A stretch of DNA of 63,632 nt, the filler included. It is 8 parts of 8 records of this genome, joined end to end, with 100 filler letters (N's around TTAATTAATTAA, not from the genome) between each part and the next. Parts side by side here need not be neighbours in the genome. Positions count along the whole stretch, not along the records: positions 39,011 to 46,817 come from SRR20825006_1420; 7 more parts are not named here. One strand, written 5' to 3'. Positions 1 to 55,495 of the stretch are shown here, one piece after another (position 1 is the stretch's first letter; each line of letters opens with the position of its first letter). The notes beneath the pieces were generated by a model that saw only the letters and a list, made by a program, of their open reading frames with translations, searched no databases and was not told the DNA's origin. The position numbers were made by a program, and so were the translations under genes.

Positions 1-276
1 GAACGCCTTGGGGTGGCCCATCTGGAAAGCGGGGGCATAGTCGAGTTCGCCGGCCTGCCGGGCGATGGCCTCGACGATGCGTGGCCGCGCGTGACCGGCA
101 TTGACGCACCACAGGCCCGCCGTGCCATCGAGCACCTGCCGGCCATCGGAGGTGGTGTAGTGCATGTCCCTGGCGGCCACGAACATGCGTGGCGCCTTCT
201 TGAACTGCCGGTTTGCCGTAAAGGGCATCCAGAACGCGCTGAGATCGTTTGGCGCAACATTGGACGAAGTGGACAC
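1..276 (-). CDS. omega-amino acid:pyruvate (beta-alanine) aminotransferase, class III PLP; 5' part, truncated at window edge
   Basis: My translation from GTG at 276: MSTSSNVAPNDLSAFWMPFTANRQFKKAPRMF...LDGTAGLWCVNAGH...FQMGHPKAF; not in ORF track; divergent from rutR. Confidence 0.9.
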   Translation of the reverse strand, partial: MSTSSNVAPNDLSAFWMPFTANRQFKKAPRMFVAARDMHYTTSDGRQVLDGTAGLWCVNAGHARPRIVEAIARQAGELDYAPAFQMGHPKAF

Positions 277-349
277 GAACGCTCGCTCCCGTTGAATTTG
301 GCCTGGCCTCGTTTTGGGTCTTGACGCGGCGGTCCGAACCCCGGAAATT

Positions 350-365
350 TTGACCAGTTGGAAAA
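350..365. promoter_or_regulatory. RutR operator
   Basis: TTGACCAGTTGGAAAA vs RutR consensus TTGACCAnnTGGTCAA (2 mismatches), in the aminotransferase/rutR divergent gap. Confidence 0.75.
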
Positions 366-400
366 ATGTTAGCATCCCTACACATTCCCGCAAGGCGAAA

Positions 401-1138
401 ATGTCCGGAAAAAAACTCAAAGCTGTCGAGCACCCCCCGGTCAGCGCCAAGCGCCAGCACAAGGCCGATGCCAAGGCGGCCGCGACCCATCCGCCACAAC
501 GGCAGCGCCCGCTGACCCGCATCCAGAAGGAAAAGCAGGACATCATTCTCGAAGCGGCGCTGGAAGTGTTTTCGGTGCATGGCTTCCGCGGTTCGACCAT
601 TGACCAGATCGCGGAAGTGGCCGGGATGAGCAAGCCGAACCTGCTCTATTATTTTCCGCGCAAGGAAGAGATTCACCGCCGGCTGATCGCCGCCCTGCTC
701 GACACCTGGCTGGCCCCGCTGCGCGACTTCGACGAGAATGGCGACCCGTTCACGGAAATCCGCTCCTATATCAGGCGCAAGCTGGAAATGGCGCGGGACT
801 TTCCGCGCGAAAGCCGACTGTTTGCCAATGAAATGCTGCAGGGCGCACCGCGCATCAGCGAGATGATCGAGATCGATCTCAAGGCATTGGTGGACGAAAA
901 GGCCAAAATTTTGTTGACCTGGATGGACCAGGGCAGGCTGGCCCGCACCGACCCGTATCATTTGATCTTTTCGATCTGGGCGACCACGCAGCATTATGCC
1001 GATTTCGACGTGCAGGTGCGGGCCGTCCTGGGCAAGGGGCGCAATGGTGAAGGGCGATTTGAGGATGCGGCGCGCTATCTCGAACAGCTGTTCATGCACG
1101 GCCTGTCGCCCAAGCCGCGCGTGAACGGATCAGCCTAG
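401..1138 (+). CDS. rutR: TetR-family pyrimidine utilization regulator RutR
   Basis: TetR HTH (GFRGSTIDQIAEVAGMSKPNLLYYF) plus RutR C-terminal motifs (ESRLFANE, IFSIWATTQHYADF); ATG 401 chosen. Confidence 0.88.
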   Translation: MSGKKLKAVEHPPVSAKRQHKADAKAAATHPPQRQRPLTRIQKEKQDIILEAALEVFSVHGFRGSTIDQIAEVAGMSKPNLLYYFPRKEEIHRRLIAALLDTWLAPLRDFDENGDPFTEIRSYIRRKLEMARDFPRESRLFANEMLQGAPRISEMIEIDLKALVDEKAKILLTWMDQGRLARTDPYHLIFSIWATTQHYADFDVQVRAVLGKGRNGEGRFEDAARYLEQLFMHGLSPKPRVNGSA

Positions 1139-1155
1139 ACCCGCCGCAACGGCAT

Positions 1156-2229
1156 TCAGGCGCTTTGCGCCAAATGTTCCGGCCGGGGACCGTCGCCCGC
1201 CAGACTGTCGCGCGGTTCGGGCCTGGTCTCGCCGGCAAAACAGAACGCGCCGCCATCGTGGCGCTTGGCTTCGTAGAGCGCCCGGTCGGCCTGTTTGAGC
1301 AGGGCCGCGGCCGGCTGGCCAAGACCATTCTGCACAATGCCCAGGCTCATGCCCACGCTGACATTCCAGCCCACCGAGGCGAGCGGCGCGCCGATGGCGG
1401 CGATGCAATCGCGCGCCAGGTGGACGAGATCCTTGCGGTGATTGCGATGCACGATGGCGACGAATTCGTCGCCGCCGATCCGGGCAAGAAATTCGCCCGG
1501 CAGCAATTGGGCGGCCAGTCTCTGAGCCACTTCGATCAGTGCCAGGTCGCCGGCATGGTGCCCGAACAGGTCATTGACCGGCTTGAACCGGTCAAGATCG
1601 AAAGCCAGCACCGAAAAGGTCCAGTCGCCAACGGCGAGCCTGGACAATTCGCCTTCGAGCGCCAGACGATTGGGCAGGCCGGTCAGGTGGTCGCGCAGCG
1701 CCTGGCGTTGCGCGGCGATGCGCTGATGTTCGATGCGCCGCACATGGCCCAGCATGGCCACGAGACACGCCAATACGCTGCAGATCAGCACCAGCATGAG
1801 CGGCACGCGCAGCGGAGCATAGGTATTGAACAGGTAGAGACCCGGCCGCTCGGCGGTCCAGGTCAGGAAATGGCTGCCCAGCGGGCCGGAGAGCAGCGGC
1901 AGGGATTGCTGATATTCGCCCGCTGCGGCAGCAGGCGAAAGTGCAAGATTGCGCAGCCCGGCCACCTGCCCCAGGCGCTCGACGGCGGGCGCCACCTGAT
2001 CTTGCGGCAATGCCACCAGGATATCGGCAATCTGCGCGGCCCGCGCGCGCTCTTCGGTCATGGAGATGGTGTCAGTGGTCTGCATGACATGCAGGGTCGA
2101 GGCGACCAGCACGGCCCCGGCCAGCAGGGCGCCCAGAAACGCGCCAAGCACAAGCCGCCGGATAGGCGCCAGTGCCTTGGCCGGGTCGGACTCCGGCAAA
2201 GTCAATAATTTGTTAATTTTCGCGTCCAC
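1156..2229 (-). CDS. membrane-bound diguanylate cyclase (GGDEF)
   Basis: Two TM segments around a short periplasmic region, DHLTGLPNR, DLDRFKPVNDLFGH, intact GGDEF; start uncertain (GTG 2229 or downstream). Confidence 0.85.
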   Translation of the reverse strand: MDAKINKLLTLPESDPAKALAPIRRLVLGAFLGALLAGAVLVASTLHVMQTTDTISMTEERARAAQIADILVALPQDQVAPAVERLGQVAGLRNLALSPAAAAGEYQQSLPLLSGPLGSHFLTWTAERPGLYLFNTYAPLRVPLMLVLICSVLACLVAMLGHVRRIEHQRIAAQRQALRDHLTGLPNRLALEGELSRLAVGDWTFSVLAFDLDRFKPVNDLFGHHAGDLALIEVAQRLAAQLLPGEFLARIGGDEFVAIVHRNHRKDLVHLARDCIAAIGAPLASVGWNVSVGMSLGIVQNGLGQPAAALLKQADRALYEAKRHDGGAFCFAGETRPEPRDSLAGDGPRPEHLAQSA

Positions 2230-6013: not shown

Positions 6014-6113
6014 NNNNNNNNNNNNNNNNNNNNNNNNNNNNNNNNNNNNNNNNNNNNTTAATTAATTAANNNNNNNNNNNNNNNNNNNNNNNNNNNNNNN
6101 NNNNNNNNNNNNN
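6014..6113. other. artificial contig spacer
   Basis: N44-TTAATTAATTAA-N44 (stops in all six frames). Confidence 0.99.
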
Positions 6114-12612: not shown

Positions 12613-12712
12613 NNNNNNNNNNNNNNNNNNNNNNNNNNNNNNNNNNNNNNNNNNNNTTAATTAATTAANNNNNNNNNNNNNNNNNNNNNNNNNNNNNNNN
12701 NNNNNNNNNNNN
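12613..12712. other. artificial contig spacer
   Basis: N44-TTAATTAATTAA-N44. Confidence 0.99.
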
Positions 12713-22530: not shown

Positions 22531-22630
22531 NNNNNNNNNNNNNNNNNNNNNNNNNNNNNNNNNNNNNNNNNNNNTTAATTAATTAANNNNNNNNNNNNNN
22601 NNNNNNNNNNNNNNNNNNNNNNNNNNNNNN
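22531..22630. other. artificial contig spacer
   Basis: N44-TTAATTAATTAA-N44. Confidence 0.99.
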
Positions 22631-33331: not shown

Positions 33332-33431
33332 NNNNNNNNNNNNNNNNNNNNNNNNNNNNNNNNNNNNNNNNNNNNTTAATTAATTAANNNNNNNNNNNNN
33401 NNNNNNNNNNNNNNNNNNNNNNNNNNNNNNN
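33332..33431. other. artificial contig spacer
   Basis: N44-TTAATTAATTAA-N44. Confidence 0.99.
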
Positions 33432-38910: not shown

Positions 38911-39010
38911 NNNNNNNNNNNNNNNNNNNNNNNNNNNNNNNNNNNNNNNNNNNNTTAATTAATTAANNNNNNNNNNNNNNNNNNNNNNNNNNNNNNNNNN
39001 NNNNNNNNNN
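38911..39010. other. artificial contig spacer
   Basis: N44-TTAATTAATTAA-N44. Confidence 0.99.
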
Positions 39011-40250
39011 CTCCGATCCCTGCATCGCCTACCTGATGGAGGAAAACAACATCACCATGCAAGCGCTGGTCATCGCCCATGCCAGCTATGGCCATAATTC
39101 ATTCTTCAAGAACAACTATCTTTTCAAAACCTGGACGGATGCCTCGTCCATCATTGATTACCTGGTGTTCGCCCGAAACTATATTGCGGACTGTGAGCAA
39201 CGCCATGGCGTCAAGGCCGTGGAGGAAACCCTGGACTCCTGCCATGCGCTGATGAACTACGGGGTGGACCGCTACAAGCGCCCTTCGCCCATTTCCGCCG
39301 TGGAGGAAAAGCGCCGGCAACGGGAACGGGAAGCGTCACTGCAGAAACAGATTTCAGAGCTTTGGCGCACTTTTCCGCAGTTACAGCCTGCCGTTCAATT
39401 ACGCGAGGAGGCCCCAAACTTTCCGGCTGAGCCCCAGGAAAACCTGCTCTACTTCCTCGAAAAAAACGCCCCCTTACTGGCTCCCTGGCAGCGGGAAATC
39501 ATCCGTATCGTGCGAAAGATGGCCCAGTACTTTTACCCCCAGCGCCAGACCAAGGTAATGAACGAAGGCTGGGCCTGCCTGTGGCATTACACCCTGCTGA
39601 ACGATCTTTATGATCAGGGGAAAGTCACGGATGGCTTCATGCTCGAATTTCTCCAGAACCATAGCCAGGTGATTTACCAGCCACCGTTCACTGCGCCCTT
39701 TTACAGCGGCATGAATCCCTACGCTCTAGGCTTCAACATGTTCCAGGACATCCGCCGCATCTGCGAAACCCCGGACGACGAAGACCGAGAATGGTTCCCG
39801 GAAATTGCCGGCTCGGATTGGTTGAGTACGGTGAAATTCGCCATGGAAAGCTTCAAGGATGAAAGCTTTATTCAGCAGTTCCTATCGCCACGTCTGATCC
39901 GTTATTTCAAGTTTTTCCAGATCGCCGACGATGACCGTAACGACTACGTGGAAGTGGGCGCCATTCATAACGAACAGGGCTACCGAAAAGTCCGTGACGC
40001 GCTGGCTGAGCAATACAACCTGAGCATTCAGGAACCCAACATCCAGGTGGTCAACGCCAATGTGCACGGTGATCGCACGCTGACCTTGCGCCACCAACGC
40101 AACAGCGGCCGGCCACTGGATGAAAACAGTGCCCGGGAGGTACTACGCCATCTGCACCGCTTGTGGAAGTTTGAGGTCCGCCTGGAGAGTGTTGAGCACG
40201 GCAGCGTACTGAACGAATTCAGCATGCCACCGCCCACCGTTATTTCCTGA
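39011..40250 (+). CDS. SpoVR family protein (YcgB-like), 5' truncated
   Basis: AHASYGHNSFFKNNY, QYFYPQRQTKVMNEGWA, NPYALGF, FKDESFI. Confidence 0.94.
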
Positions 40251-40267
40251 TCCGGACACGACCGACA

Positions 40268-41212
40268 TCATGGCACCGGATCCAGGGTAGCGGCTGCTTC
40301 AGACTCTGCCATTTGCTTCAGCTGGCGGCGTACCTTGTGATCCCCCAGCAAGAAAAGCGACAACGCGAGCACAATCAATGCGGCGCCCGCCAGCACCAGA
40401 GCTCCAAGGCTTTCGCCGTTGAACAGGCTACCCAGCGACAGCGCCAACACCGGTGTTATCAGCGTCACCAGCGCCACGGTGGCCGCAGGCAAGCGCGCCA
40501 GTACCTGGTAGTAACAGTAAAAACCCAACAGCGAGCCGAACACCGCCAGATACAGGATGGCGGACAGGCCCCGATAGTCACCGCTAAAACTCAACGTCTG
40601 CCCGGTAATCACCATGCCGACGGCATAGCAGGGTAATGACAACAGCAAGCCGCCCACGGTCTGCTGCATGGGCTGCAGCCCGGCGGCCACACGTTGCACG
40701 GCGATGCCACTGCCGGCAAACAGGGTCACCGCGCTGAGCATCCACAGTAAGCCGACACCCCGGTCCCCCATGCCTTGCCCGGCGACCAGCACGTGCAGGC
40801 TGTCATCAAAGACCAGTGCCAATCCGGCCAGGCCGATCAGGCAGGCACTCCAGTGCCAGCGATTGAGGCGCGTCCCACCCGGCAAACCTTGCAGCATCAA
40901 CCCCGAGAGCAACGGCGCCAGGCCAAAGATCACCGAGATCAACCCGGAAGGCAGGTGCGCTGCTGCCATATAGCTACAGCCCATGGCACCGAAAATACCG
41001 GGCAGGGACGCCAGATAGCTAAGCCGCGCCCGGCGATGCAGCGGCAACGGCTGACGTTTCATCCACAACCAGCCCAGCCCCAGCAGCGCGGCGATGCCCA
41101 TGCGCACACCGGCTGCCGCCAGCGGCGCCATGGCCTCACCACTCCATTTAATCCCCAACGGCGTGGTTGCCCACACCGCCACCACGATCAAATACGCTGC
41201 CAGGGTTGGCAT
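40268..41212 (-). CDS. EamA/DMT family transporter
   Basis: About 10 TMs in two repeats; VWATTPLGIK, YLAVFGSLLGF, TLITPV...E. Confidence 0.92.
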   Translation of the reverse strand: MPTLAAYLIVVAVWATTPLGIKWSGEAMAPLAAAGVRMGIAALLGLGWLWMKRQPLPLHRRARLSYLASLPGIFGAMGCSYMAAAHLPSGLISVIFGLAPLLSGLMLQGLPGGTRLNRWHWSACLIGLAGLALVFDDSLHVLVAGQGMGDRGVGLLWMLSAVTLFAGSGIAVQRVAAGLQPMQQTVGGLLLSLPCYAVGMVITGQTLSFSGDYRGLSAILYLAVFGSLLGFYCYYQVLARLPAATVALVTLITPVLALSLGSLFNGESLGALVLAGAALIVLALSLFLLGDHKVRRQLKQMAESEAAATLDPVP

Positions 41213-41220
41213 GATTTTCT

Positions 41221-41378
41221 CCGCTTCAAGCTACACGCAACACGCATCAACGCGCTCATCGTTGCCTTTTGATTTACCACCTCACTGCCCGCGCTCAAAC
41301 ATTTGTGCGCGGGCAGTGCCTCAGGACTCCGGCTTGCGTTGATTCGCGTTGTTGCATGGAGCCTGTTGCGTGAAGCGG
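41221..41378. repeat. MITE/REP-doublet-like element: 34-bp imperfect terminal inverted repeats plus a central 12-bp hairpin
   Basis: 41221-41254 vs reverse complement of 41345-41378 match 27/34; CACTGCCCGCGC/GCGCGGGCAGTG at 41283-41318; related arm at 44934-44965. Confidence 0.65.
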
Positions 41379-41384
41379 CCCCAT

Positions 41385-41423
41385 AAAAAAAGGCCGCAGG
41401 TCGGGGACGCTGCGGCCTTTTTT
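41385..41423 (-). terminator. intrinsic terminator in the 5' leader of the EamA gene (attenuator)
   Basis: Minus strand AAAAAAGGCCGCAG-CGTCCCCGAC-CTGCGGCC-TTTTTTT, lying between divergent genes. Confidence 0.85.
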
Positions 41424-41437
41424 AAGAACTGAAACTT

Positions 41438-41533
41438 TCAGTCACACAGCCGTCGTCCCTGCGCACGCCATTTGCGTGCACAGCGGTCGACGACCAGCAT
41501 CAAAGAGTTCAGTTTCAGTACGATAGAAAGCAT
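41438..41533 (-). CDS. putative 31-aa leader peptide [31 protein letters not shown]
   Basis: My translation; stop 14 nt before the terminator; TTGTTT-N17-CAGAAT promoter ends 6 nt before the ATG. Confidence 0.55.
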
Positions 41534-41569
41534 GCGACCATTCTGCTCAAGAACTCACAGGTAAACAAG

Positions 41570-42802
41570 ATGAAAGTGTATCTGGTGGGCGGTGCGGTGC
41601 GGGATTCCCTGCTCGGCCTCCCCGTGACGGAAAAGGACTGGGTCGTGGTTGGCGCCGCGCCGGAAGAAATGCAAGCCAACGGATTCCGTCCCGTGGGTAA
41701 GGATTTCCCGGTATTCCTGCACCCCGACACCCAGGAAGAATACGCCCTGGCCCGTACCGAACGAAAATCCGGCCACGGCTATGGCGGCTTTACCTTCCAT
41801 GCCGCCAGCGACGTTTCCCTGGAAGAGGACCTGATTCGCCGCGACCTGACCATCAATGCCATGGCGCGTTCAGAAGGTGGCGAGGTGGTCGACCCTTTCA
41901 GCGGCAAAGTCGACCTGAAAGCTCGCCTGCTACGACATGTCTCCCCGGCTTTTGCCGAAGACCCGCTGCGAGTATTGCGTGTGGCACGATTCGCTGCCCG
42001 TTATCACTGGCTTGGTTTCCGCGTCGCGGACGACACCCTGGCACTGATGCGCCAGCTTAGTGACAGCGGCGAACTGGATTACCTGGTGCCTGAGCGGGTC
42101 TGGAAAGAAACCAGCCGGGCACTCATGGAACCGGCCCCCCAGGTCTTTTTCCAGGTGCTGCATGCCTGCGGCGCACTGGAAAAACTATTCCCCGAATTGG
42201 CCGCACTGGATGGCGTCCCCCAACCGCAAGCCCACCACCCGGAAGTGGATACCCTGGTGCATCAATGGCTATGCCTGGAAATGGCCGCAACACTCAAGCT
42301 GCCGTTGACGGCCCGCTACGCTGTGCTGTGCCACGATCTGGGCAAAGCCAAGACCCCACAGGCAGAGTGGCCCCGGCATATCGCCCATGAAATTCGCAGC
42401 GCGCGACTGTCACGCGCCTTGTCGAAACGGCTGCGCGTCCCCCGGGACGCCGCCGACACCGCCGCGCTGGTGGCCGAATACCACACCCACTGCCACCGCG
42501 CTCTGGAGCTGAAACCGCAAACCGTGTGGAAACTGTTCAAGGCACTGGATGTGATCCGCCGGCCCGAACGGTTGGAAGATTTTCTGGGCGCCTGCGAAGC
42601 CGATGCCCGCGGCCGCACCGGTTTCGAAGACCGTGCCTACCCCCAGGCAAACTACCTGCGCGGTGCGGCCCAGGCGCTCCAGTCTGTGGACGTGGCCGCC
42701 TTGCGCGCTGAGGGTATTGAAGGGCCCGCCCTGGGCGACGCCATCGAAAAAGCCCGCATCCAGGCCATCACCACTTTCAAACAACAGGAGCTCAATCCCT
42801 GA
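41570..42802 (+). CDS. cca: multifunctional CCA tRNA nucleotidyltransferase
   Basis: [39 protein letters not shown] domain (HDLGK). Confidence 0.97.
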
Positions 42803-43539
42803 TGACAACCCCCGTCGCCCTGGTTACCGGCAGCGCCCGCCGTATCGGCGCCCAGATCGTTCGTACCCTGCATCAACATGGTATGCGGGTGATCATTCAC
42901 TACCGGGGCAGCCAGCAGGAAGCCGAAAGCCTGGCCACAGATCTCAATCAAACCCGCCCGAACAGTGCCGCCGTGCTACAAGCCGATCTGGACCAGCCGA
43001 CCGCAGTACGCCAGCTGGCCAGCGATGCGCTGGCCTGTTTCGGCCAACTGGACCTGCTGGTGAATAATGCCTCCAGTTTTTACCCCACGCCCATTGATCA
43101 GGCCGACGACGCCGACTGGGAAAAATTGATTCACAGCAACCTGCGCGCCCCCTTTATTCTCAGCCAGCAACTGACGCCGGCCCTGCGCCAACAACACGGC
43201 TGCATTATCAACATAGTCGATGTCTACGCAGAAAAACCGCTGCAAACCCACACCCTGTATTGCATGGCCAAGGCAGGACTTGCGATGATGACAAAAAGCC
43301 TGGCTCGGGAGCTGGGGCCGGAGATTCGCGTGAACGGCGTATCCCCGGGGCCAATCCTGTGGCCGGAGGCGGGGCAAATGAACCAGCAGGCGATTCAGGA
43401 TGCCACCGCGCTCAAGCGCAGCGGTGAACCGGATGACATCGCCAACACGGTTTACTGGTTGGCCACTGCCGCACCGTTTATTACTGGGCAAATATTGGCC
43501 GTGGACGGGGGACGTTCACTGGCCTTGCAGGGAAGCTAA
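42802..43539 (+). CDS. pteridine reductase (FolM/PTR1-like SDR)
   Basis: TGSARRIG, NNASSF, YCMAK, VDGG; folate-gene context. Confidence 0.88.
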   Translation: MTTPVALVTGSARRIGAQIVRTLHQHGMRVIIHYRGSQQEAESLATDLNQTRPNSAAVLQADLDQPTAVRQLASDALACFGQLDLLVNNASSFYPTPIDQADDADWEKLIHSNLRAPFILSQQLTPALRQQHGCIINIVDVYAEKPLQTHTLYCMAKAGLAMMTKSLARELGPEIRVNGVSPGPILWPEAGQMNQQAIQDATALKRSGEPDDIANTVYWLATAAPFITGQILAVDGGRSLALQGS

Positions 43540-43570
43540 AAACAAAACACGGGAAGGACTCTCGAGGAAA

Positions 43571-44011
43571 ATGATGAGATTAATCGGGGGAATAATTCTG
43601 TCGCTGACGGTCATGTCTGCCAGTGCAGAAATCTATCGCTGGAAAGACGCCAACGGAAATTGGCAATTCGGGGACAAGGCGCCAAAAGAACAACATGACA
43701 CTCTCGACGTGAAAGCTCCCCCCAAAATTGGTCAGGAGGATGCACGCGATATTCATGCCCGCACCCAGCGCCTGCTGGAAAGCCAGCGTACCCAGGCCCG
43801 AGAAAAAGCCCAGGCCGAAGAAGCCGCCCGAAGACAACACCAGGAACGTTTTGCCAAACCCTGCGCGGAAGCACAAGACCGCCTGAAAATGCTCAAAGGC
43901 CCTTTCGAATACATTGAAGAAGACGGCTCACGGCGCGGCGCAACAGCAGACGAAGTTGCCGCAGACCAGAAAAAAACCCGCAAATGGATTGACGAACATT
44001 GCGACTTCTAG
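43571..44011 (+). CDS. secreted DUF4124 protein
   Basis: Signal peptide then AEIYRWKDANG.WQFGDKAP, coiled coil, two Cys. Confidence 0.85.
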   Translation: MMRLIGGIILSLTVMSASAEIYRWKDANGNWQFGDKAPKEQHDTLDVKAPPKIGQEDARDIHARTQRLLESQRTQAREKAQAEEAARRQHQERFAKPCAEAQDRLKMLKGPFEYIEEDGSRRGATADEVAADQKKTRKWIDEHCDF

Positions 44012-44925
44012 CGCTTGCTCTCACCCTCAGTCTCCTGCTCGGCGACATCGCCCGGGCAGAAATTTTCCAGTGGCGTGACGCCAACGGTAAATTGCACTTT
44101 GGTGACCGGCCACCGGAAGACGTACAAACCCAAACCATCACCCCGAACATCAGCCCACAACTCAAAGAACTCGAAATCCAGATTAAACGTCAGGACTTCA
44201 CCCTCTCCGGCGACCTGCAACAACAAACGCTGGATAACATCCACAACATTTACCAGCGCTACCGCCGGGATTTCGGCCTGGACCTGCATGGCACCGCGGA
44301 AGTCAATTTATACCTGATTGAAAAACAGGACGACTTCCAGCAATGGATGGTTGACCGCATAGGCTCCAGCAGCCGCCACTATGCCGGCGTCTTTATTCCT
44401 GCCACCAATGAAGTGGCAGTGTGGCGATGGGCCGATGATGAACGGCAAGTTGCCCAGACCATCCTGCATGAATCCAGCCACGTTCTGCTCTACCAGTTAT
44501 CACCCTCGGCCCCGGTCTGGTTGCAAGAAGGCCTGGCACAGTATTTCCAGACACTGGAAACACAACCGGACGGTCGCCTGAAAATCAGTGCGCTGCCGGA
44601 TGCGCAGGAGCGGGTTCAGACCTGGATTGAACAGCAACGGCTGATTACTCTGCGGCAGTATCTGTCCCTGGACGATGCGCAATGGCGAAAAATGGCCCAC
44701 CAGCTAAACGCCATTCCCTATACGGTTGCCTGGGCCACTACCGCTTTTCTCATGTCCAAACCCGTGGGCCGCGCCACCCTGCGACAAATGCTTCAGGACC
44801 TGGAGAAAACCCACCAGCGCCCAACACTTCAGCGTATCGAGCACCTCTACCCCGGTGGCATTTCACGGCTGGAATACGATTTCTTTCGTTGGGCCCAAAG
44901 CGATATGGCACCGCATTGGTATTAA
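43999..44925 (+). CDS. secreted DUF4124 plus gluzincin-like metallopeptidase domain protein
   Basis: EIFQWRDANGKLHFGDRPP; HESSH followed by WLQEGLAQY. Confidence 0.82.
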   Translation: MRLLALALTLSLLLGDIARAEIFQWRDANGKLHFGDRPPEDVQTQTITPNISPQLKELEIQIKRQDFTLSGDLQQQTLDNIHNIYQRYRRDFGLDLHGTAEVNLYLIEKQDDFQQWMVDRIGSSSRHYAGVFIPATNEVAVWRWADDERQVAQTILHESSHVLLYQLSPSAPVWLQEGLAQYFQTLETQPDGRLKISALPDAQERVQTWIEQQRLITLRQYLSLDDAQWRKMAHQLNAIPYTVAWATTAFLMSKPVGRATLRQMLQDLEKTHQRPTLQRIEHLYPGGISRLEYDFFRWAQSDMAPHWY

Positions 44926-45020
44926 AAAGAGACGCGGCACGCTTCACGCCACACGCTGCAACGCGGGCGATACTGGGTGCCGAACGGTGGCTGCGCTGCC
45001 CGCGAAACGGTTCGTCTCCA

Positions 45021-45052
45021 GTAGGTCGAATAGCCTAAAGGCGTAATCCGAC
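45021..45052 (+). repeat. GTAG-type REP element
   Basis: GTAG-GTCGAATA-GCC-TAAA-GGC-GTAATCCGAC imperfect palindrome between convergent genes. Confidence 0.7.
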
Positions 45053-45097
45053 ATGCTGCGTTCCGAGGCCCATAGCCGGGACCGACGAACCGCGCCG

Positions 45098-45619
45098 TTA
45101 TTTATCCTCGAACGGCACCACCCACAACTTCTGATCGCTGAAATTCGCTGTTTCCAAAAGCGTGCGGTAAGAGGTTTTTGTTTCGGGGTGCTGGGCATCC
45201 GGGGCCAGATCCACCAGGGGTTTCAACACAAAAGCGTGTTTGAGAATTTCATCGCGGGGCAGCTGCACCCCATCCACTTCCCCCACACAGTCGTCGTAGG
45301 TAAGAATATCGATATCCAGGGTTCGGCTGGAAAACTTCTTCTCGCCACGTACCCGGCCATGGTCTTTTTCGATGTCCTTCAGGCAAGCCGCCAGGTCCCC
45401 GACACTCAGGGTCGTCTTCAGCCCTACCACCAGGTTATAAAAAGCATCGCCGTCAAAACCCACCGCTTCACTTTCATACACCGGACTGATTGCCAGCGGT
45501 GAAAATAGCGGGGCCAGCGCTTTCAGCCCAGAGCGGATATTGTGCTCACGGTCTATATTGGAGCCCAGGCTAAGGAATACCTGAGCCTGAGACGCGTCAC
45601 CTTCCAGCGCTTCACCCAT
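45098..45619 (-). CDS. folK: 2-amino-4-hydroxy-6-hydroxymethyldihydropteridine diphosphokinase
   Basis: LSLGSNI, FYNLV, IE..GR, RTLDIDIL, FVLKPL. Confidence 0.94.
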   Translation of the reverse strand: MGEALEGDASQAQVFLSLGSNIDREHNIRSGLKALAPLFSPLAISPVYESEAVGFDGDAFYNLVVGLKTTLSVGDLAACLKDIEKDHGRVRGEKKFSSRTLDIDILTYDDCVGEVDGVQLPRDEILKHAFVLKPLVDLAPDAQHPETKTSYRTLLETANFSDQKLWVVPFEDK

Positions 45620-45974
45620 CGGGACGTTCACCCCGCTCAATGATCACACCCACATCCCGCGCACCACGCAGGGCGCCCGGTTTGCTGAGCCGCAGCTTCA
45701 ACCACGGCACCTGAAATTCGTTGAGCACCAGCTGCGCCACGTTCTCGGCCAGCGTCTCAACCAGCTGAAACTCGCTGCTTTCGATAAAGGCAATCAACCG
45801 CTTGCCGATAGCCTTGTAGTCCAGGGCATCGTCGATGTGATCCGATGCTGCCCCTCTGCGAATGTCCGCCGCCATCTCCAGATCCAGACTGACGGTCTGG
45901 CGAATACGGCGCTCCCAGTCAAAAATGCCGATCACGGTATCCACTTTCAAATCATTGATATAAACAATATCCAT
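45612..45974 (-). CDS. folB: dihydroneopterin aldolase
   Basis: MDIVYI..L.V.T.IG.FDWER...Q, LDY, LVETLAE, KPGA. Confidence 0.95.
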   Translation of the reverse strand: MDIVYINDLKVDTVIGIFDWERRIRQTVSLDLEMAADIRRGAASDHIDDALDYKAIGKRLIAFIESSEFQLVETLAENVAQLVLNEFQVPWLKLRLSKPGALRGARDVGVIIERGERPDG

Positions 45975-46165
45975 ACTCGATCTCTTGGCGTGGCATTCAC
46001 CGGCACCTACGCTGACACAGGGCCTCTGGCGGATGAATCCCATTTCAGGTAATCAGATGTTACGCTTGCAGCGCAGGCAATAACGCCCTGCTGTGTACAA
46101 TGTCACCCCATGTATTACAGGGCGCAAATTTCGCTGCCTCAGCGATTGAAGGGAGATTATAGCCG

Positions 46166-46780
46166 GTGCAAGCAGGGACATTACAGGACGTCTGGTTTTG
46201 GCTAGTGCCATTGTGCATAGCCGGCTATCTGATGGGCTCTATTTCCAGCGCCATTCTGGTGTGTCGATTGTTCGGTTACTCGGACCCTCGCACCGAGGGC
46301 TCCAACAACCCCGGGGCCACCAATGTATTGCGCATTGGCGGCAAACCGGCGGCCGCGCTCACCCTGCTCGGTGACGTACTTAAAGGGGTCATTCCGGTGA
46401 TATTGGCCCGCTCTCTCGACATGGGCCCCTTTGTCGCCGCCCTGGTGGGCACCTTCGCCTTTCTGGGCCACCTGTACCCGGTGTTCTTCCATTTTCAGGG
46501 TGGTAAGGGCGTGGCCACAGCTTTCGGGCTGTTGTTCGCCCTGCACTGGCCCAGCGGGCTGCTTGCCGGTGGCACCTGGCTGCTGGTCTTTGCCCTCAAC
46601 CGCATTTCTTCCATCGCCTCACTCAGCGCTTTTGTAGTAGCACCGGCGTGTATCTTTGCCTGGCTGCCCCAGGCTTTCTGGCCCATGCTAGCTCTGTCTC
46701 TGGTGATGATCGCCCGGCACCGCAGCAATCTGCAGAAAATCCTGCGTGGAGAAGAACTGGGGTTCCGGAAGAAGGATTGA
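46166..46780 (+). CDS. plsY: glycerol-3-phosphate acyltransferase
   Basis: GYLMGSI, GSNNPGATNVLR, DVLKG, GHLYP.FF.F.GGKGVATA, RHRSN. Confidence 0.96.
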   Translation: MQAGTLQDVWFWLVPLCIAGYLMGSISSAILVCRLFGYSDPRTEGSNNPGATNVLRIGGKPAAALTLLGDVLKGVIPVILARSLDMGPFVAALVGTFAFLGHLYPVFFHFQGGKGVATAFGLLFALHWPSGLLAGGTWLLVFALNRISSIASLSAFVVAPACIFAWLPQAFWPMLALSLVMIARHRSNLQKILRGEELGFRKKD

Positions 46781-46790
46781 GCCCTCAGCC

Positions 46791-46814
46791 GTAGGAGCGT
46801 CGCTGGCGGCGCGA
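46791..46814 (+). repeat. GTAG-type REP element at contig end
   Basis: GTAGGA-GCGTCGC-TG-GCGGCGC-GA. Confidence 0.65.
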
Positions 46815-46817
46815 TTC

Positions 46818-46917
46818 NNNNNNNNNNNNNNNNNNNNNNNNNNNNNNNNNNNNNNNNNNNNTTAATTAATTAANNNNNNNNNNNNNNNNNNNNNNNNNNN
46901 NNNNNNNNNNNNNNNNN
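46818..46917. other. artificial contig spacer
   Basis: N44-TTAATTAATTAA-N44. Confidence 0.99.
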
Positions 46918-55395: not shown

Positions 55396-55495
55396 NNNNN
55401 NNNNNNNNNNNNNNNNNNNNNNNNNNNNNNNNNNNNNNNTTAATTAATTAANNNNNNNNNNNNNNNNNNNNNNNNNNNNNNNNNNNNNNNNNNNN
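55396..55495. other. artificial contig spacer
   Basis: N44-TTAATTAATTAA-N44. Confidence 0.99.

Follow-up and report, generated by a model that had tools for sequence, protein, structure and literature searches.

The stretch of DNA considered here (63,632 nt, hereafter the window) includes, at positions 39011–46817, a contig from a draft genome of Alcanivorax, a marine oil-degrading bacterium, on which a 357 nt intergenic region separates the gene for an EamA-family transporter (eamA) from the divergent cca gene. An original prediction, made from the sequence alone, held that this region contains a complete leader-peptide attenuator controlling eamA, and it is this putative element that forms the subject of the present analysis. 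The closest public match to the contig is L001, an Alcanivorax sp. metagenome-assembled genome (MAG) in which cca is 100% identical to that of the window. The relevant features, numbered along the whole window, include an open reading frame (ORF), two base-paired helices (P1 and P2) and a terminator, as follows.

40268–41212, minus strand: gene for an EamA-family (drug/metabolite transporter, DMT) protein, the presumed regulated gene (Pfam PF00892, E = 9.8e-29)
41375–41382, minus strand: post-terminator box GGGGCCGC ("segment 5"), complementary to the terminator 3' arm
41385–41423, minus strand: intrinsic terminator (3:4), composed of A6 (41418–41423), stem (41392–41417) and T7 (41385–41391)
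41428–41436, minus strand: P1 3' arm AGTTTCAGT, with a small local hairpin with 41437–41443 as its alternative
41438–41533, minus strand: leader ORF of 31 codons plus TGA, with its ATG at 41533
about 41447–41496, minus strand: P2 hairpin (1:2), the anti-antiterminator, lying wholly inside the ORF
41448–41459, minus strand: segment 2, GGGACGACGGCT, complementary to the terminator 5' arm and loop
41468–41470, minus strand: invariant Trp codon TGG (W22) at the hairpin apex
41511–41519, minus strand: P1 5' arm ACTGAAACT, forming 9 bp with 41428–41436
41540–41545, minus strand: −10-like hexamer CAGAAT, 17 nt from the −35-like hexamer and 6 nt before the ATG
41563–41568, minus strand: −35-like hexamer TTGTTT (TTGTNN in relatives)
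41570–42802, plus strand: cca, coding for the multifunctional CCA-adding enzyme (NF008137, 640.7 bits against a cut-off of 451), the 5' region of which overlaps the leader promoter

Each of the parts claimed in the original prediction was located on the minus strand where it had been placed, namely the TTGTTT-N17-CAGAAT pair ending 6 nt before the ATG at 41533, the 31-residue ORF, the 1:2 hairpin, segment 2, the 9-bp long-range pair (P1) and the U7 terminator. The further claim that the downstream gene codes for an EamA exporter fared less evenly: the window protein has two PF00892 domains, as do the EamA proteins of L063 and L078, but the word exporter is an assumption, as no NCBIfam equivalog cut-off was reached, the best sub-threshold match being YedA, and the YedA, YddG and O-acetylserine/cysteine exporter models of NCBIfam all scored far under their cut-offs.

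The distribution of the element was established over 80 loci (L001 and others so numbered) obtained from one cca-protein scan of species-representative genomes, with an EamA homologue being counted where it is divergent from cca, and the element being sought upstream of cca on the opposite strand using blastn and an nhmmer profile. A homologue of the window EamA (34–99.7% identity by tblastn) was present in 25 of the 80 loci, and the element accompanied it in all 25, of which 23 were recognised by the terminator pattern; single differences break that pattern in L004 and L017, both of which were found by nhmmer. Among the 55 loci without EamA, the element was detected in L003 only. Where cca has been kept and eamA is gone (e.g. 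L011 and L064), the element is gone as well, and because its presence or absence follows eamA while cca stays, it can be concluded that the element travels with eamA rather than with cca. In L003, an insertion sequence (IS) element of the IS3 type (3–1207, minus strand of the locus), comprising a 131-residue HTH_28 protein and then an rve integrase, stands directly after the terminator in the place taken by eamA elsewhere.

Twenty of the element-bearing loci are from Alcanivoracaceae, among them those of the cultured strains Alcanivorax jadensis T9 (L019) and A. hongdengensis A-11-3 (L008), and weaker versions were recorded in Marinimicrobium (L034, L056, L063 and L067), in a Cellvibrionaceae MAG (L039) and in a MAG labelled Dongiaceae (L078), these six being referred to below as the distant loci. 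In L039, L056, L063 and L067, most of the nhmmer match falls on the terminator, and identification of the ORF and hairpin came from inspection and folding. Alcanivorax and Marinimicrobium belong to different orders of the Gammaproteobacteria, respectively Oceanospirillales and Cellvibrionales. Across the Alcanivorax-group loci the DNA from the cca start to the terminator exhibits 75–99% blastn identity (86–90% in most), compared with only ~80–84% identity for the corresponding cca proteins, and conservation of the DNA past the terminator is limited to the two closest relatives.

The terminator itself, with stem GGCCGCAG / CTGCGGCC, a 10-nt loop and a hairpin energy of −23.1 kcal/mol, lies between the leader ORF and eamA in 25 of the 25 eamA-linked loci. 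The core of this stem, GCCGCAG/CTGCGGC, is found in each of the 17 rows of the alignment of the element (A1) and in the six distant loci, save that the 3' arm in L004 has C for T. Given that the EamA proteins of those distant loci are only 34–43% identical to that of the window, retention of the core fits a sequence that is held by more than one pairing partner.

Throughout A1 (17/17), the leader ORF is open from a conserved ATG to a conserved stop, and it occurs in five lengths (84, 87, 90, 93 and 96 nt), each a multiple of three, the other two frames containing stops in most rows. Stop codons have been exchanged for other stop codons, TGA for TAA in L016 and TAG for TAA between L063 and L067, and each distant locus contains an ORF of 30–43 codons that spans the hairpin, with its end immediately ahead of the closing helix. 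As the original prediction had it, segment 1 contains no run of codons for any one amino acid; its features are instead a single invariant Trp and two near-invariant Arg. An alignment of 21 peptides confirmed that Trp (W22) is the sole invariant column (21/21) and that the two Arg are at least 90% conserved. In A1 the invariant loop bases are exactly TGG and the variable loop bases exactly one codon (Lys/His/Gln/Val). In nine of ten representatives, the TGG precedes the sequence that pairs best with the terminator 5' arm by 11–23 nt, a spacing close to that at which a ribosome decoding this codon would, given the size of its footprint, leave segment 2 exposed; the distance from Trp to the C-terminus varies from 8 to 15 residues. 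A stall near MLVVDRC, as originally proposed, fits this geometry, but the sole invariant residue is the Trp that follows that heptapeptide, and Cys is missing from the peptides of Marinimicrobium and L039.

Conservation of the leader peptide, for which the original prediction had suggested a check, was borne out with respect to the open frame and the invariant Trp; by comparison, the signs of selection on the other amino acids were slight. Third codon positions were slightly more variable (entropy 0.63 versus 0.45 and 0.49), and the synonymous share of differing codons was 0.238 in frame versus 0.143 and 0.176 out of frame. Peptide identity between clades was 23–33%, the L016 peptide has no hydrophobic stretch, and the leader peptide gave no Pfam or NCBIfam match. 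With neither a conserved peptide sequence nor a family match, the peptide does not resemble a type I toxin or other functional small protein. An open frame combined with little constraint on its sequence is the pattern to be expected if the act of translation outweighs the product. Comparison of the 21-peptide profile with 1.84 billion representative proteins yielded one relevant entry (P0001), a 70-residue predicted protein from a close relative that starts with the exact leader peptide and has the TGA read through as Trp; it was rejected as a genuine longer protein, being the artefact of a gene call made under a code in which TGA is sense.

The RNA corresponding to 41380–41545 folds at −74.9 kcal/mol, compared with −49.2 ± 3.5 kcal/mol for 200 dinucleotide shuffles, none of which was as good (z = −7.3). 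When examined on A1, P1 was 90.8% paired with changes on both sides in four of its nine pairs, and P2 (20 pairs) was 95% paired with a compensatory change in six. Taken together, P1, P2 and the terminator were 95.3% paired, versus 34–47% for slid controls, and included 12 pairs changed on both sides, a number reached by none of 500 column shuffles. The equivalent of P1 in L016, L021 and the distant loci has different sequences and the same pairing, and single-sequence folds paired the segment after the ATG with the segment after the stop in 17/17, the divergent L016 and L021 included. RNAalifold applied to A1 recovered P2 and the terminator, P1 being replaced by a local hairpin in which its 3' arm takes part. 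The same rod-plus-terminator fold was obtained for all six distant loci.

In every A1 sequence (17/17) the minus-strand hairpins, which contain many G-U pairs, are more stable than their complement by 3.9–18.7 kcal/mol, an asymmetry that argues for an RNA on the minus strand and against the 5' untranslated region (UTR) of cca. An opposite-strand RNA of that kind was accordingly rejected, the plus-strand structure being the weaker in 17/17. A repeated element was likewise rejected, as neither the hairpin nor the terminator recurs anywhere in the window or the 80 loci, orthologous sites aside. The original prediction had recognised no described leader, and in agreement Rfam 15 gave no match at the gathering threshold in the whole window or in eight related loci, and nothing reached threshold when the site itself was searched in E-value mode; the best sub-threshold matches, Thr_leader (25.2 bits against 55) and STnc40, rest on the terminator.

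Pairing of segment 2 with the terminator 5' half (2:3) was assessed by a nascent-RNA test in which the P2 5' arm was masked and the terminator 3' arm omitted, corresponding to a ribosome on segment 1 and a polymerase inside the terminator. Under these conditions the minimum free energy (MFE) structure was the 2:3 pairing in 17/17, with duplex energies of −19.4 to −27.2 kcal/mol compared with −18.5 to −25.8 kcal/mol for the terminator. A positional scan using 12-nt windows along the whole leader (120–171 per locus, ten representatives) placed the best partner of the terminator 5' half in the P2 3' arm, with its start 17–43 nt before the end of the ORF, in 10/10; segment 2 of the window sequence was the best of 132 such windows (−18.7 kcal/mol). 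Relative to shuffled versions of segment 2, the 2:3 duplex stood out in 8 of the 17 A1 rows (≤4/300) and, among the distant loci, in L034 (6/500) and to a lesser extent in L078 (39/500).

The promoter-like pair TTGTNN-17-CAGAAT (7–8/12 match) was recovered at the same place in all Alcanivorax loci scanned, ending 6 nt before the ATG. The CAGAAT is unchanged in 16 of the 17 A1 rows, and in the exception, L021, the pair reads TTGCCC-17-CATCAT and also ends 6 nt before the ATG; L078 has TTGACC-18-TATAGT (10/12 match), ending 8 nt before it. A stricter scan called no promoter on either strand of the intergenic region of the window, missing the proposed one because its −35 matches at just 3/6 positions, and overlooked the terminator because its loop is larger than the limit of the scan. 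From the spacing between the −10 and the ATG, the leader mRNA is predicted to begin at or next to the AUG and hence to be leaderless; it has no Shine-Dalgarno sequence. A 35-nt block around the leader ATG (41511–41545) shows no variation at any codon position in 15 of 17 sequences, and contains on the plus strand TACGAT, a candidate −10 for cca, in a search for cca promoters that produced weak candidates only. The block probably serves the divergent cca promoter as well, and the leader and cca transcripts may consequently start almost back to back or overlap.

The spacer from the U-tract to the eamA start is only 42–79 nt in eight loci (L008, L016, L034, L039, L056, L063, L067 and L078), within which the best sigma-70-like matches scored 3–7/12, and 134–239 nt in the window (172 nt) and most Alcanivorax. 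No conserved candidate for an independent eamA promoter was found among the loci scanned.

On this evidence the element is best explained, with a probability of roughly 0.6, as a cis-acting transcription attenuator of eamA that is controlled, most likely, by where a ribosome stands on the leader ORF. The strand of the hairpin, the open ORF, the leaderless geometry, the position of the 2:3 partner, the linkage to eamA and the short spacers all support such a reading. As envisaged, transcription would start at or next to the ATG at 41533 to give a leaderless mRNA. Were the ORF to go untranslated, P1 and P2 would fold, segment 2 would be locked, and the terminator would form, so that a transcript of ~150 nt would end at T7. 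A ribosome that reached the stop codon would cover segment 2, which falls within the last 6–14 codons, and the terminator would again form. If, by contrast, the ribosome were held on the P2 5' arm or apex (codons ~10–22, up to the Trp codon), segment 2 would be left free, and its pairing with the loop and 5' arm of the terminator would allow RNA polymerase to read on into eamA.

As to the signal, the candidates are a general slowing of translation, the supply of Trp-tRNA and a nascent-chain effect, and our best guess is slowed translation, either general (e.g. caused by ribosome-targeting compounds) or at the Trp codon. The more specific proposal that the invariant apex Trp codon is the sensor, and that a ribosome held there turns on the DMT transporter, is doubtful; the ribosome could be held because Trp-tRNA is in short supply, or because the nascent chain interacts, in a Trp-dependent manner, with an antibiotic or small molecule within the exit tunnel.

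A number of results weigh against attenuation of this kind. Of the claim that the element controls eamA, co-occurrence with EamA, conservation, the open ORF and the 2:3 position all stood, but covariation, which is evident in P1, P2 and the terminator, did not extend to the 2:3 helix, where no pair in A1 has a compensatory change in register. Exchanging segments 2 and 3 between nine lineages made little difference (cognate −20.9 versus non-cognate −20.1 kcal/mol), 2710 of 20000 permutations being as good, and hence was not significant. Shuffling of segment 2 left the 2:3 duplex unremarkable in the window (55/300) and in the other four distant loci (94–234/500). When the full transcript minus the P2 5' arm was folded, the terminator was still the MFE structure in 14/17, and any switch would therefore have to be kinetic, as in classical attenuators. 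Amino-acid-level selection on the leader peptide appears weak, the mean BLOSUM62 score of changed residues being −0.95 in frame and −1.41 and −0.61 out of frame, and conservation of the 35-nt block, since it is probably shared with the cca promoter, is no evidence for the peptide. In Marinimicrobium and L039 the best promoter match (TTGTGC-17-TATCGT and similar) is 30–55 nt upstream and the leader ATG has no Shine-Dalgarno sequence, which makes translation there less certain. Long spacers contain sigma-70 matches of 5–8/12 at non-conserved places, and eamA could conceivably have its own promoter inside these palindrome-bearing tracts.

To these must be added a 268-nt palindromic insert, resembling a miniature inverted-repeat transposable element (MITE), which cuts the ORF after codon 9 in L003, L004, L005 and L018, so that it stops after 10 codons in three of these loci and after 33 in L003. 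Full-length eamA is retained in three of the four, and this tolerance suggests either that the insertions are recent or that the mechanism does not need the full ORF. The copies in L004 and L018 are 99.3% identical despite their divergent hosts, suggesting site-specific or recent spread, and the insert has no other copy in the window or loci. In L004 it occupies 2671–2941 and folds at −179 kcal/mol.

Several of these points would be accommodated by a cis attenuator that is not read by ribosomes, in which the choice between terminator and antiterminator is set by binding to the P1/P2 rod, whether of a small molecule, an RNA-binding protein or an RNA acting in trans, and the presence of an ORF is incidental. 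Nucleotide-level conservation exceeds that of the peptide, and compensatory changes in the stems alter the peptide (Ala to Val twice in L008). The leaders of Marinimicrobium and L039 have neither a Shine-Dalgarno sequence nor leaderless geometry, and the ORF-breaking insert tolerated in four loci folds on itself, with P1 and P2 still able to form. Such an attenuator is nonetheless unlikely, because an incidental ORF would not be expected to stay open through at least four length changes, each a multiple of three, or to have its stop codons replaced by stop codons, or to coincide in its Trp codon exactly with the invariant loop bases while the adjoining loop codon varies; furthermore, the rod, a plain hairpin with irregularities, offers no obvious pocket for a ligand, and no riboswitch or protein-binding leader in Rfam matched it. 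An equally improbable alternative is that of an independent small gene producing an sRNA of ~150 nt and/or a 31-residue protein, with eamA transcribed from its own promoter in the spacer and linked to the element through a common function or through regulation in trans. The strong terminator with its U7 tail and the A/U-rich stretch ahead of it are as in many Hfq-type sRNAs, the spacer of the window measures 172 nt, many Alcanivorax have a TTGCAG box after the terminator, and the terminator is the most stable fold in 14/17. The eight loci with spacers of 42–79 nt have no promoter-like match above 7/12, however, and the long spacers are lineage-specific palindromic inserts; the element and eamA are moreover present or absent jointly (25/25 versus 1/55), a sequence complementary to the terminator 5' arm has a constant position within the ORF, and the peptide, at 23–33% identity between clades, is conserved too poorly for a functional protein.

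That the region has no regulatory role at all, the terminator being a bidirectional insulator and the hairpin a palindrome of the repetitive extragenic palindromic (REP) type combined with the cca promoter region, is very improbable. The terminator is indeed symmetrical (A6-stem-T7) and potentially bidirectional, the region is rich in palindromic inserts, and the candidate cca −10 lies inside the invariant block; against this, G-U pairs make the structure strand-specific, the ORF has been maintained, the element has no other copy in the window or loci, and in L011, L064 and 52 other loci it has been lost along with eamA, cca being retained.

Attenuation by ribosome position, as preferred here, invites comparison with the trp-type mechanism, which is established for amino-acid biosynthetic leaders (represented in Rfam by, e.g., Thr_leader, RF00506). 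Like trpL of E. coli, the element would combine a short ORF near the promoter, overlapping segment 1, with 1:2, 2:3 and 3:4 pairings that exclude one another; an intrinsic terminator precedes the presumed regulated gene, and the position of the stop codon would let a terminating ribosome cover segment 2. It differs in having one invariant Trp rather than a regulatory codon run, a predicted leaderless start, a transporter gene rather than a biosynthetic operon as its target, and an additional closing helix (P1) and post-terminator box; the 25.2 bits scored by Thr_leader, against a threshold of 55, cover the terminator alone. Ribosome-stalling attenuators of efflux functions have reportedly been described in Bacillus subtilis (the BmrB leader of bmrCD) and in Pseudomonas aeruginosa (a leader peptide upstream of the MexXY regulator). 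These resemble the present element in the lack of an amino-acid run and in control of a transporter or efflux system via terminator read-through when translation is disturbed; they differ in organism and transporter class (the target here being DMT/EamA), have no sequence relation to it, and respond to a known inducer. TnaC, a Trp-containing arrest peptide that arrests at the stop codon and blocks Rho, is similarly a short regulatory peptide with an essential Trp, as the Trp here is invariant, upstream of a transport or catabolic gene; in the present case, however, Trp is 8–15 residues from the C-terminus, and a ribosome held at the stop would favour termination rather than read-through. Leaderless short ORFs acting as attenuators are known from Actinobacteria and Deinococcus (bioRxiv 10.1101/834739; PMC4007540), in which the leaderless ORF is reportedly likewise the first cistron controlling downstream genes, but contains poly-Cys or other codon runs and occurs in phyla where leaderless mRNAs are common. 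The present element, unlike those, is from Gammaproteobacteria and has a canonical intrinsic terminator. By analogy, it would work in the manner of the trp-type, efflux-stalling and leaderless attenuators while being a member of none of them by sequence or Rfam model.

In searches of the literature on Alcanivorax sRNAs, EamA attenuation, leaderless leader peptides and ribosome stalling, no description of the element was found. A small-RNA map of Alcanivorax based on differential RNA sequencing (dRNA-seq) is available for A. dieselolei B-5 (PMC9788540), and neither the 20-nt core of the element nor any matching sRNA appears in the accessible parts of its supplementary tables. The cca neighbour in that strain, B5T_00972, is an oxidoreductase of the nitropropane-dioxygenase family and not eamA.

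EamA/DMT transporters are very numerous, and most have neither a known substrate nor known regulation, so that a conserved attenuator would provide an experimental handle, whatever relieves termination being likely to be tied to the substrate or to the stress that calls for the transporter. Should the attenuator prove genuine, a leaderless example with a single invariant codon would be added to a class whose members in Gammaproteobacteria are mainly amino-acid operons with codon runs; were the doubtful Trp sensor also to be correct, it would constitute a new single-codon leaderless sensing peptide in two marine orders of the Gammaproteobacteria and would point to the transporter substrate. Rfam has no family for the element, the leader ORF of which is passed over by gene callers.

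In 15 of 25 loci the post-terminator box outscored 97% or more of the shuffles, but in the window itself it was not significant (78/300 shuffles). It either repeats the 5'-arm sequence or complements the loop plus 3' arm, reading GGGGCCGCAG in Marinimicrobium and GCAGGTCG in Alcanivorax, and is present after the U-tract in L006, L010, L014, L023, L034, L056, L063 and others. In L056 and L067, the resulting 4:5 hairpin out-competes the terminator in the full-length fold. A translational lock, whereby the box would link the state of the terminator to exposure of the eamA ribosome-binding site (RBS), was considered and dropped, as predicted accessibility changed in only 2 of 17 loci.

The tract between the terminator and the eamA RBS in the window is largely taken up by one further feature, conserved in L001 and L002 only.

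41221–41378, minus strand: long imperfect palindrome (REP-like insert)

Long imperfect palindromes whose arms contain heptad-like repeats are also present in L006 (2596–2801), L009 (2626–2796), L023 (2701–2801) and L014 (6414–6512). At least four sequence types, each lineage-specific, were distinguished in different Alcanivorax, with arms that stay complementary. A further copy of one of these types is located elsewhere in L014 and L009, on which basis the palindromes are probably dispersed REP-like elements.

The window contains seven runs of N, each with TTAATTAATTAA at its centre, at 6014–6113, 12613–12712, 22531–22630, 33332–33431, 38911–39010, 46818–46917 and 55396–55495. Each of these linkers stands between two different contigs, so that the window represents a draft assembly strung together end to end, and the order of genes on either side of a linker is not real. 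Within the focal contig, the gene next after cca codes for a pteridine reductase, and on the far side of eamA lies one other gene.

39036–40250, plus strand: SpoVR-like gene, truncated by the contig start

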